From assembly GCA_963807025.1 (NCBI GenBank), contig CAWDZT010000010.1, positions 25,301 through 89,300 on the forward strand: DNA of 64,000 bases. Reading direction: 5' to 3'. The position numbers were made by a program, and so were the translations under genes. The first letter of the stretch is position 1; every line of letters starts with the position of its first letter. Positions 53,103 through 54,937 of the stretch are shown here, piece by piece. The notes beneath the pieces were generated by a model. It had not been told where the DNA came from. It searched no databases and saw nothing but the letters and a program-made list of their open reading frames with translations. The DNA is from an uncultured Candidatus Saccharibacteria bacterium (GTDB lineage Bacteria > Patescibacteriota > Saccharimonadia > Saccharimonadales > UBA4665).

Positions 53103-54937
53103 AAGCCCATTGTATCAAAGTTTACGTCTCCTACGGCCTCACGGGTGAAGACTTCTATGCGGTCGTCTTCCTGAAGCAGGATTTTCTTATCGGTCTTAAG
53201 GGCGATGCCGCACATCTCGCCTTCCACCACCTCTTTGGCGTCGGCCGGACCGCGCTTCAGGCCGATGACCTCGGCTTCGCCCAGCTCATCGCCGCCGCGG
53301 GTGACGCGGGCCAGCGCCGGTGCCGACAAGCTTGCCTTTGGTGACTTCGCCGCCGGCGATGATGTCGGTCTTGGTGGTCTTGAAGACGCGCCTTGACCTG
53401 CAGGCGGCCCAGTTCTTTCTCGACTATCTTGGGTTTGAGCAGTTTGGTAAGTTCTTCTTTGGCGTCGTCTATGAGTTCGTAGATGACCTTGTACATGCGT
53501 ACGCTTATCTTGTCGCGCGAGGCCTGGCTGCGGCTGGACGCGGGCAAACCTGACGTTGAAGCCGTAGATGATGGCGCCTGAGGTGTGGGCCAGGTGCAGG
53601 TCGTTCTCGCCTACCGGGCCTACCCCTGAGCCGACCACGCGCACCGATACTTCATCGGTTTCCAGCGCCTTCAGGCTGTCAAGGACAGAGGTAAGCGAGC
53701 CCTGTACGTCGGCCTTGACGATGACTTTCAGCTCCGCGATCTCGTTGTTGCGGTTGATCATGCGGATGAGTTCGCCGGAACCGATGTCCATGCGGCCGGC
53801 GGCCGCTTTGGCGCCGGCGGCCTCCGCCTTCTGACGGGCCTCCTTCTCGCTGGCGACGGCCTCGAACTCGTTGCCGAACTCCGGCAGGGTCTTGAAGCCG
53901 GTGATAGCCACCGGCATGGACGGCGTGGCCTCTTGAAGAGGCTTGCCGTCGGTAGTTTCCAGATTGCGGACCTTGGCATAAGAGCCGCCGGCCACGACGA
54001 AATCGCCCTTCTTAAGGGTGCCGGTCTCTACCAGGGCCTGGCCTACCGGGCCGCGGCCCTGTTCCACATGGGCTTCGATTATCAAGCCGCGGGCCGGCGC
54101 GTCGACGTCGGCCTTGAGCTCCTCGACGTCGGTGACCAGGAAAAGCATATCAAGCAGTTCCGGTATGCCCTTCTTGGTCTTGGCGGATACCGGCACCACG
54201 ATGGTGTCGCCGCCCCATTCTTCGGTCAGCAGGTCGTGTTCGGACAGCTGTTGTTTGAGCCGGTTGATGTCGGCGCCTTCTTTGTCGGTCTTGTTGGCGG
54301 CCACCACTATCTTCACGCCGGCCTTCTTGGCGAAGCGGATTGCCTCGACCGTCTGCGGCTTCACGCCATCGTCCGCGGCCACCACCAGCACCACGATGTC
54401 GGTCAGCATGGCGCCGTGCTCGCGGATAGCGGCGAAAGCCTCATGGCCGGGGGTATCCAGGAAGGTTATGGGGCGGTCCTTGTGTTTGATCTGATAAGCC
54501 GAGATATGCTGGGTGATGCCGCCAGCCTCGTCATTCACCAAATCGGTTTCGCGTATGGCGTCCAGCAGGCTGGTCTTGCCGTGGTCCACGTGACCCATAA
54601 CCGCTATGACGGGCGGCCGCTCCTTGGCGCCCTTGCCTGCCACTGGTTTTTCGCGCTTCCCAGTACCTTTGCCATCACCGGTAACAACGTTGTTATTGCT
54701 ACCAGCAAAGGTGCTGGGCTTCTTCTTAAGCTCTATGCCAAGTTCCAGTTCTTCGACGATTATCTGGGCAGTGTCGAAGTCGATGCGCTCGTTCACTGTA
54801 GCCATGACCCCGTTCTTCATCAGCTCGCCTATCAGGCGGGCGACGGGTATGGACAGCCGCTCGGCCAGGGTGCCGACGGTGACCATGTCTTCGATCTCTA
54901 TGGTGGTCTGCGTGGTTGATTCTGCTGACTCTGCCAT
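53096..54937 (-). CDS. infB: translation initiation factor IF-2 (two compensating frameshifts around 53270-53550)
   Basis: G domain GHVDHGKTSLLD / DTPGHEAF / NKTD. MAESAES start at 54937 preceded by GGAAAGGAG. The correct frame of the C-terminal domain appears in ORF 53257..53547. Confidence 0.9.
   Translation of the reverse strand: MAESAESTTQTTIEIEDMVTVGTLAERLSIPVARLIGELMKNGVMATVNERIDFDTAQIIVEELELGIELKKKPSTFAGSNNNVVTGDGKGTGKREKPVAGKGAKERPPVIAVMGHVDHGKTSLLDAIRETDLVNDEAGGITQHISAYQIKHKDRPITFLDTPGHEAFAAIREHGAMLTDIVVLVVAADDGVKPQTVEAIRFAKKAGVKIVVAANKTDKEGADINRLKQQLSEHDLLTEEWGGDTIVVPVSAKTKKGIPELLDMLFLVTDVEELKADVDAPARGLIIEAHVEQGRGPVGQALVETGTLKKGDFVVAGGSYAKVRNLETTDGKPLQEATPSMPVAITGFKTLPEFGNEFEAVASEKEARQKAEAAGAKAAAGRMDIGSGELIRMINRNNEIAELKVIVKADVQGSLTSVLDSLKALETDEVSVRVVGSGVGPVGENDLHLAHTSGAIIYGFNVRFARVQPQPGLARQDKRTHVQGHLRTHRRRQRRTYQTAQTQDSRERTGPPAGQGASSRPPRPTSSPAAKSPKASLSAPALARVTRGGDELGEAEVIGLKRGPADAKEVVEGEMCGIALKTDKKILLQEDDRIEVFTREAVGDVNFDTMGLC
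54659..54718. repeat. 60-nt palindromic element copy inserted in frame in the infB N-terminal linker
   Basis: Gene-sense sequence cccagcacctttgctggtagcaataacaacgttgttaccggtgatggcaaaggtactggg is translated as PSTFAGSNNNVVTGDGKGTG. One arm is about 27/31 identical to the end of the 23S GIY-YIG element. Confidence 0.6.

Follow-up and report, generated by a model that had tools for sequence, protein, structure and literature searches.

Rickettsia palindromic elements (RPEs), which Ogata and colleagues reportedly described in 2000, insert in frame into genes of Rickettsia. To our knowledge, their route of entry into genes has been unknown since that description, and neither an autonomous partner nor a duplication of the target has been connected with them. 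[quoted passage not shown] In-frame palindromic or MITE insertions are also known from Coxiella, whose elements are called QMITEs (PMC5896051, PMC3184786), and MITEs that enter coding regions or are co-transcribed have been reviewed (PMC3184786, PMC10969869). Non-intron insertions with GIY-YIG open reading frames (ORFs) in the rRNA genes of candidate phyla radiation (CPR) bacteria have already been published (Tsurumaki et al. 2024, PMC11270868), in a text where neither "inverted repeat" nor "palindrom" occurs. Here we analyse a 64-kb stretch of a Candidatus Saccharibacteria contig (CAWDZT010000010.1, positions 25,301 to 89,300; hereafter the window), in which infB, the gene of translation initiation factor 2 (IF-2), carries a 60-nt palindromic block in its coding sequence. 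This block is probably a non-autonomous, MITE-like palindromic transposable element, made of two ~30-nt terminal inverted repeats (TIRs) of a longer element joined head to head.

An in-frame palindrome in the IF-2 linker

infB lies on the minus strand of the window (CDS 53096-54937, ATG at 54937) and encodes 613 residues. A first-pass annotation, made from the sequence alone, had placed a palindrome of exactly 60 nt, or 20 codons, in frame in the N-terminal linker of IF-2, and both its extent (54659-54718) and its place were confirmed. The coding strand of the element reads CCCAGCACCTTTGCTGGTAGCAATAACAACGTTGTTACCGGTGATGGCAAAGGTACTGGG and is translated to PSTFAGSNNNVVTGDGKGTG, residues 74-93. 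Pfam assigns residues 19-65 to IF2_N and residues 110-266 to the GTPase domain, so the insert sits in the inter-domain linker, and the reading frame is unbroken from IF2_N via the element into the G domain. In an AlphaFold model of IF-2 built from 46 orthologues, residues 76-94 have a predicted local distance difference test score (pLDDT) below 50 and no secondary structure. The element is an imperfect palindrome, an inverted repeat with zero spacer whose 30-nt arms are 73% complementary, with 12/13 matching in the outermost 13 nt. Its RNA folds with -30.9 kcal/mol (z = -5.7), which was equalled by none of 200 shuffles.

The 20 residues were found in none of the 119 closest IF-2 orthologues (74-90% identical; named sources mostly Saccharimonadales), which carry an 8-9-residue variable segment at that site, e.g. 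EAEEAAAPK. The comparison of orthologues, proposed in the first-pass annotation as a check, thus identifies the residues as lineage-specific. In an alignment of the DNA, two relatives share the flanks AAGAAGAAG and AAGCGC with the window on either side of the lineage-specific block, which measures 60 nt in the window and 24-27 nt in the relatives (net +33/36 nt). Since 60 nt replace 24-27 nt, the infB event combines an insertion with the loss of old linker.

A dispersed repeat family and its insertion sites

The infB element belongs to a family with the arm consensus YCCAGCACCTTT-N10-TTTACAACG. With up to two mismatches allowed, the window contains 16 occurrences of the terminal 13-mer where 1.8 are expected, and none of 100 shuffles reached 16. 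An inventory with the arm profile yielded five short full copies, two half copies, two termini-only hairpins and one 421-nt copy (Table 1), and the members occupy rRNA, a 5' untranslated region (UTR), a gene tail and intergenic DNA. The short copies, 60-70 nt long and built of two 30-35-nt arms, have the size, the non-coding make-up, the TIRs and, within 64 kb, the multiple dispersed positions expected of MITEs. Among all other window arms, an arm of the long copy is the best match of the infB left arm; the two are 25/31 identical in the best arm pair (14/19 outside the common 12-nt terminus), slightly below the 27/31 given in the first-pass annotation. The centre reads ACAACGG-(ORF)-CCGTTGT in the long copy and ACAACGTTGT in the short copies, which are in effect both long-copy arms joined at the centre.

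The window copies have the genome-specific termini CCCAGCACCTTT, and a sub-terminal ACAAC is carried by 10 of the 13 window arms, among them the two arms of the long copy. The same motif occurs in 3 of 244 arms of metagenomic copies with the same 10-nt terminus, among the matches listed. Since ACAAC is shared by the window copies and the long element, they form one genome-specific subfamily, and the 421-nt GIY-YIG element is its only coding member. The two arms of a copy co-vary (7.0/11 within copies vs 4.35/11 between copies; permutation p ~0.001). Stem complementarity is 73% in the infB copy and 79-96% in the rRNA copies, and the infB stem is the most decayed among the full copies.

The nrdR copy has a clean empty counterpart in relatives. 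Two relatives with 96-97% identical NrdR read ...TTTAATGGT-AAG-AGGAGG, and the window reads GGT-AAG-(68 nt)-AAG-AGGAGG. The site is empty in L157, L158 and L159, the empty target sequence being GGTAAGAGG; AAG is present once in L157 and L158 and twice in the window. The nrdR copy is thus a precise insertion with a target-site duplication of 3 bp (CTT/AAG, at 34773-75 and 34844-46), as MITEs leave. Flanking 3-bp repeats also enclose the infB copy (AAG/AAG) and the mini-hairpin 16 nt upstream of the infB start (CCG/CCG, at 54950-52 and 54981-83), which is absent from relatives L001 and L002. From the empty nrdR site with its 3-bp duplication and from the 3-bp repeats at the other two sites it follows that the family has transposed, and its insertion duplicates 3 bp of the target. 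Taken with the dispersed family and the absence from all 119 orthologues, the empty site justifies describing the infB block as an inserted mobile palindromic element of RPE-like behaviour, as the first-pass annotation had proposed. The nrdR copy lies 3 nt upstream of the Shine-Dalgarno sequence and just downstream of a conserved AT-rich promoter/operator block, ACACTATATGTAG...ACATATATTGTGAGCACATTTAATGGT; judging from this position, it may affect nrdR expression (34773-34900 region).

At rpsB, a copy of 57-59 nt takes the place of 21 nt in the tail of the closest relative, a net gain of 36 nt. Read in the frame of that relative, the copy stays open until the shared stop codon, which overlaps the tsf start; in the assembled frame it is the source of the last 11 codons and the stop, and the S2 domain in the assembled window is one base out of phase with the rpsB tail. 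In two related AT-rich genomes (L035:2997-3055 and L136:10377-10435), an element likewise gives the upstream gene its final residues (..IYPAPFKT) and stop, and these gene ends resemble the rpsB case. The frr half copy partly overlaps the native conserved C-terminus of ribosome recycling factor (ADILTL-stop), so its central motif may be partly coincidental.

Three copies reside in the 23S rRNA gene, where the insertion sites were mapped by alignment to the E. coli 23S rRNA. They form extra stem-loops at the tips of helices 25 and 45, which we take to be the classical sites of intervening sequences (IVS), and a third at helix 63. Their stems are long and stable in predicted folding, with z = -8.2 and -12.5 for the rRNA hairpins vs -5.7 and -3.1 for the coding copies, and the helix-63 copy contains G-U pairing, which works in the rRNA sense strand only. 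Two other expansions of this 23S gene, at 62121-62264 (144 nt after E. coli 288) and 59574-59764 (122 + 54 nt, ~2207-2222), have their own hairpins without the family termini. In L151 (153-1010), whose 23S is 90-93% identical to that of the window, an 858-nt insertion between window-23S positions 3374 and 3375 holds two family hairpins (831-856 and 945-1003); the window is empty there.

Table 1 Members of the repeat family, their host genes and flanking repeats in the window
Feature	Position	Strand
Half copy (single arm), starts at the frr stop codon	8395..8426	+
59-nt decayed copy, 3' tail of rpsB, just before tsf	9595..9653	-
Half copy (single arm), directly after the stop codon of membrane-protein ORF 18360-19109	18328..18358	-
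68-nt palindromic copy, nrdR 5'UTR, between conserved promoter/operator sequence and Shine-Dalgarno	34776..34843	.
infB (IF-2), 613 aa; ~70 aa near the C-terminus out of frame through three +1 indels	53096..54937	-
CTT (AAG in the coding strand), left 3-bp direct repeat of the infB element; same trinucleotide as the nrdR duplication	54656..54658	.
60-nt palindromic element, in frame, IF-2 residues 74-93 (PSTFAGSNNNVVTGDGKGTG)	54659..54718	-
CTT, right 3-bp direct repeat of the infB element	54719..54721	.
28-nt termini-only hairpin CCCAGCACCTTTG-TC-CAAAGGTGCTGGG, rpsA (S1)-infB spacer	54953..54980	.
Degenerate terminus-type hairpin arm, 5S-23S spacer	58778..58790	-
23S rRNA gene, host of three family copies	58887..62558	-
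60-nt palindromic copy replacing the helix 63 tip (E. coli ~1715-1746); z = -8.2	60213..60272	-
70-nt palindromic copy replacing the helix 45 tip (E. coli 1165-1186); RNA hairpin z = -12.5	60761..60830	-
421-nt long copy with 31-33-nt TIRs, replaces the helix 25 tip (~E. coli 550)	61445..61865	-
Intact 102-aa GIY-YIG nuclease ORF inside the long element	61483..61791	-

These observations suggest the following course of events at infB. The element would have landed at an AAG among the Lys-rich codons of the linker, and ~24-27 nt of the adjoining old linker would have been lost at insertion or later. It is presumably translated as a Gly/Ser/Asn/Thr-rich loop that is tolerated rather than selected, since the inter-domain linker is disordered and the length is a multiple of three. 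Its stem seems to have decayed since insertion, as would be expected if a strong hairpin is disfavoured within an mRNA. In rRNA, the same hairpin would only make helices 25, 45 and 63 longer at their tips, in the manner of classical IVS.

The long copy, its relatives and the candidate mover

The 102-aa protein of the long copy matches the GIY-YIG domain (Pfam PF01541, E = 3e-17, residues 11-80 of 102). No further domain, and in particular no joined DNA-binding domain, was detected in this protein, and no NCBIfam model matched it. SLX1 is a structure-specific nuclease. Among solved structures, UPF0213 BH0048 (1ZG2, E = 3e-4) is nearest, followed by SLX1 chains (E = 1e-3 to 4e-3), and alignment with UPF0213 and SLX1 retains the catalytic positions Y-x-Y, Y-x-G, R, H and E; the nuclease is of the Slx1/UPF0213 type. 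The GC content at third codon positions (GC3) of the ORF is 0.43 vs 0.65-0.78 in host genes, which suggests a foreign origin or a constraint from lying inside rRNA. The non-ORF part of the 421-nt insert comes to ~110 nt and is mostly inverted repeat, and Rfam at gathering thresholds found only large subunit (LSU) and 5S rRNA in the window, with no group I ribozyme core. The long copy with the same termini as the short ones, where a MITE would have its cognate element, encodes a GIY-YIG nuclease and not a known transposase; neither a transposase domain nor a Y1/REP-associated tyrosine transposase (RAYT) was found in the 10 unannotated window ORFs scanned.

The ORF has relatives in 31 genome loci. 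In L003 and L004, whose GIY-YIG ORFs are 62% and 50% identical to it, the element lies at the helix-25 site seen in the window and has the same CCCAGCACCTTTG termini. L008 has a GIY-YIG element in helix 25 between different termini, CCGAGCACTCAAC, and these recur in L008 in a 106-nt ORF-less copy in 16S rRNA and in two 23S mini-hairpins, one of them in helix 45. Compared with the long copy of L008, the 16S copy matches over ~33 nt on the left and ~43 nt on the right; since the right-end match extends beyond the 27-nt inverted repeat, the 16S copy appears to be a deletion derivative. In L005, one hairpin is present in a filled and an empty version with similar outer flanks. L102 and L039 carry a short CCAGCACC element in helix 25 and, in helix 45, a GIY-YIG element with different termini. 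As far as these sequences indicate, long and short forms usually have the same termini within a genome and different ones between genomes. The arm profile of the window matched only the L003 and L004 termini among the genome loci and nothing at E <= 1e-3 across 159 loci; beyond the 10-12-nt terminus, the window subfamily is thus specific to its genome.

A metagenome scan with the pattern CCAGCACCTT-N30-60-AAGGTGCTGG returned at least 120 stretches with 122 element copies. Among the matches listed, five of the at least 120 stretches have the copy in or next to rRNA (23S), ~38 copies are AT-rich with TTTA...TTTA flanks, and several copies run in frame through long ORFs. In the AT-rich copies, the flanking duplication is significant but ambiguous, as TTTA/Y...R/TTTA is readable as a 4-bp, 3-bp or 2-bp repeat. 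In the thioredoxin reductase of L060, the alignment to solved structures skips exactly the 24 element-encoded residues (86-109), and further in-frame copies lie in Lgt, a PMT_2 glycosyltransferase, a DUF6390 protein and a C39-like peptidase. Like RPEs, the elements are thus present both in frame in protein genes and in RNA genes (infB, the rpsB tail, 23S, TrxB, Lgt). Related species retain orthologous filled sites, in which both the flanks and the termini are conserved. Matches in FtsK (L071) and FabF (L046) turned out to be native conserved coding sequence and not insertions, and many GC-rich matches are probably due to chance. No transposase recurs near the at least 120 copies, among the matches listed; the only recurrent mobile-type neighbour there is GIY-YIG, within 3 kb at 4 of the at least 120 loci.

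Several loci show further arrangements. L009, L012/L013, L026 and L032, from Bacteroidota-type and other genomes, contain tandem arrays of two to three small GIY-YIG genes with identical short hairpins between the genes, and the arrays adjoin tRNA genes. In L063, a GIY-YIG gene is enclosed by an inverted repeat that extends into the 5' end of a tRNA. Three family elements stand in tandem within 400 nt in L103 (1762-2145), and type-IV-pilin-like proteins are encoded near the element in L044, L068, L080, L090 and L103.

In our working model, the Slx1/UPF0213-type GIY-YIG protein of the long copy acts in trans on the hairpin or cruciform termini of the family. We hold this model tentatively, at somewhat less than an even chance, and consider a transposase other than the GIY-YIG protein almost as likely as the mover. 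The candidate mobilising nuclease pointed out nearby in the first-pass annotation accordingly keeps that status: its terminal repeats are common with the short copies, and it is a 102-aa catalytic domain. A more far-reaching version, which we regard as unlikely, is that a ~100-aa Slx1/UPF0213-type GIY-YIG protein itself mobilises an unrecognised class of prokaryotic DNA transposon by acting on hairpin or cruciform termini. If that were true, arm-only derivatives would colonise rRNA helix tips, UTRs and, in frame, protein genes, and one mechanism would underlie both CPR non-intron rRNA insertions and RPE-like peptides.

Several points weigh against these readings. As regards the nuclease, the protein consists of the catalytic domain alone; the short 3' overhangs left by characterised GIY-YIG enzymes would not yield a 3-bp duplication, and we know of no 3-bp target duplication as a signature or product of GIY-YIG cleavage. 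The gene lies within 3 kb at only the four metagenomic loci mentioned above, among the matches listed, and the helix-25 and helix-45 elements of L102 and L039 differ in their termini. As regards insertion, the infB event is a replacement rather than a clean insertion, so that an extra deletion step must be assumed, and the rpsB event is a replacement as well. No flanking duplication was found at the rRNA or rpsB copies. The inventory covers 64 kb of one error-prone assembly, and the public copy of the window IF-2 stems from the same assembly.

The best-surviving alternative is that a conventional transposase (e.g. DDE) encoded outside the window moves the palindromes, with the GIY-YIG gene as a passenger or homing gene, which is possible, if doubtful. 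The GIY-YIG gene would then land at the palindrome centre with the arms as repair homology, and the short copies would be "empty" targets instead of deletion derivatives. A target duplication with a fixed length of 3 bp is characteristic of DDE transposition, and the ORF segment placed exactly at the palindrome centre, the filled and empty hairpin in L005, the foreign-looking GC3 and the lack of a nearby GIY-YIG gene at most metagenomic copies, among the matches listed, all agree with this explanation. On the other hand, no transposase was recognised in the scanned unannotated ORFs of the window and none recurs near the metagenomic copies listed, whereas GIY-YIG does, and the L008 right-end match past the inverted repeat fits a deletion origin.

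Retention of the infB insert for its usefulness is compatible with a mobile origin and seems improbable; the benefit would come either from an mRNA hairpin that adjusts infB expression or undergoes RNase III cleavage, or from a longer linker in IF-2. One family hairpin does lie 16 nt ahead of the infB start and another immediately in front of the nrdR Shine-Dalgarno sequence, and filled sites persist between related species with their termini conserved. However, no full copy has a more decayed stem than the one in infB, the 119 orthologues all work without the element, and the encoded peptide is predicted to be disordered. Less probable still is a non-mobile origin, in which the CCAGCACC hairpin is a native module of helix 25 copied by ectopic recombination or gene conversion, into further helices and once into infB. 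This would account for the CCAGCACC stem in helix 25 of the window, of L003/L004 and of the more distant L102, and for rRNA copies that replace helix tips without flanking duplications. It does not account for the precise nrdR insertion with its 3-bp duplication, the 3-bp repeats that flank the infB copy and the mini-hairpin, or the position of the metagenomic copies, which, among the matches listed, lie away from rRNA at all but 5 of the at least 120 loci, including in-frame positions in unrelated proteins. An artefact of assembly or sequencing, in the form of a chimeric join or an adapter-like palindrome, is hardly credible: many single-base indels break infB, frr, nrdA, ileS and the rpsB tail, but the arms differ from one another and from all other copies, the frame is kept, and the same family occurs in independent public assemblies of other projects.

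The exact lengths given here rest on one assembly with several single-base indels. Near its 3' end, infB differs from its closest relative by three insertions of +1 and one of +2, and the AlphaFold model has pLDDT below 30 over the out-of-frame stretch 459-540. Essential genes that are indel-broken or locally out of frame include infB (53130-53550), frr (~8470) and the rpsB tail (~9680-9720); nrdA (33169-34243), the ileS pieces (26451-28551) and the leuA-like pieces (29631-31151) are also broken relative to close relatives. Assembly error is the most likely cause, with pseudogenisation as the alternative. The window also holds a second, unrelated inverted-repeat family with three copies of ~195-425 nt (25780-25995, 36670-36865 and 51960-52385), with outer ends GCGGATATGACATTC, inner repeats ATGTCAACATGTAGCTCGACGTTTTT and no ORF. 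Its inner 21-mer occurs 6 times against 0 expected, and this family looks like another MITE.

Comparison with described systems

The literature yielded nothing relevant on palindromic elements in Saccharibacteria, on MITEs in CPR bacteria, or on prokaryotic UPF0213/GIY-YIG elements with terminal inverted repeats. The window family shares with repetitive extragenic palindromes and their mosaic elements (REP/BIME), which are mobilised by RAYT, short GC-ended palindromes that are dispersed, kept as hairpins and have co-varying arms. It differs in that no Y1/RAYT gene was found in the window ORFs scanned or the metagenome neighbours listed, and in that copies lie inside genes. REP copies are strictly outside genes, and REP/IS200-type insertion leaves no target duplication, unlike that of the window family.

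GIY-YIG homing endonucleases of the I-TevI type, whether borne by group I introns or free-standing, resemble the window nuclease in their catalytic domain and their location within an insertion in a conserved gene (PMC3943268), and the occupation of the same 23S site in the window, L003/L004 and L008 is homing-like. In contrast to them, the window element has no ribozyme (Rfam) and no DNA-binding domain, its protein totals 102 aa and is nearest to UPF0213 and SLX1, and the element is bounded by long inverted repeats.

The IVS in 23S rRNA of Salmonella, Leptospira and Coxiella also replace the tips of helices 25 and 45 with stem-loops bounded by inverted repeats, some with a small ORF. RNase III removes such IVS from the precursor, which leaves the 23S rRNA in fragments. 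They carry the four-helix protein 23S_rRNA_IVP where the window ORF is GIY-YIG, and the window element is also found in helix 63, a 5'UTR and two protein-coding genes. The CPR non-intron insertions are the same phenomenon as the 421-nt copy, located in a poorly conserved helix and unlike group I/II introns (PMC11270868). The rRNA part of our results is therefore not new in kind; what is new compared with that work is that the insertions are tied to a dispersed palindromic family with transposition signatures. Part of the CPR non-intron rRNA insertions is thereby recast as members of a transposing repeat family.

Bacterial MITEs such as the Coxiella QMITEs and the Neisseria Correia elements share TIRs, many copies, a target duplication, RNA hairpins and occasional in-frame peptides with the window family. 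Unlike them, the window family has a GIY-YIG gene instead of an insertion sequence (IS) transposase in its coding relative, consists of copies that are almost all arms, and favours rRNA helix tips.

The closest likeness in behaviour is to RPE-1 to RPE-8 of Rickettsia, which are likewise short palindromes in intergenic DNA, in RNA genes and in frame in protein genes, with the inserted peptide in a tolerant surface or linker region. The host here belongs to an unrelated lineage, CPR/Saccharimonadales, and the likeness is one of behaviour: membership is not claimed and a sequence relationship is not expected. RPEs measure ~100-150 nt vs 60-70 nt for the window elements, and the window family, compared with RPEs, has a longer coding member with the same termini and a documented 3-bp target duplication. 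Through such elements, core proteins (IF-2, S2, thioredoxin reductase, Lgt) of organisms with very small genomes gain peptide segments. Unlike RPEs, this family offers an in-frame copy in an essential gene, a longer copy that encodes a nuclease, and an empty/filled site pair with a 3-bp duplication, and these three features make the mechanism testable with one 102-aa protein and a 60-nt substrate.

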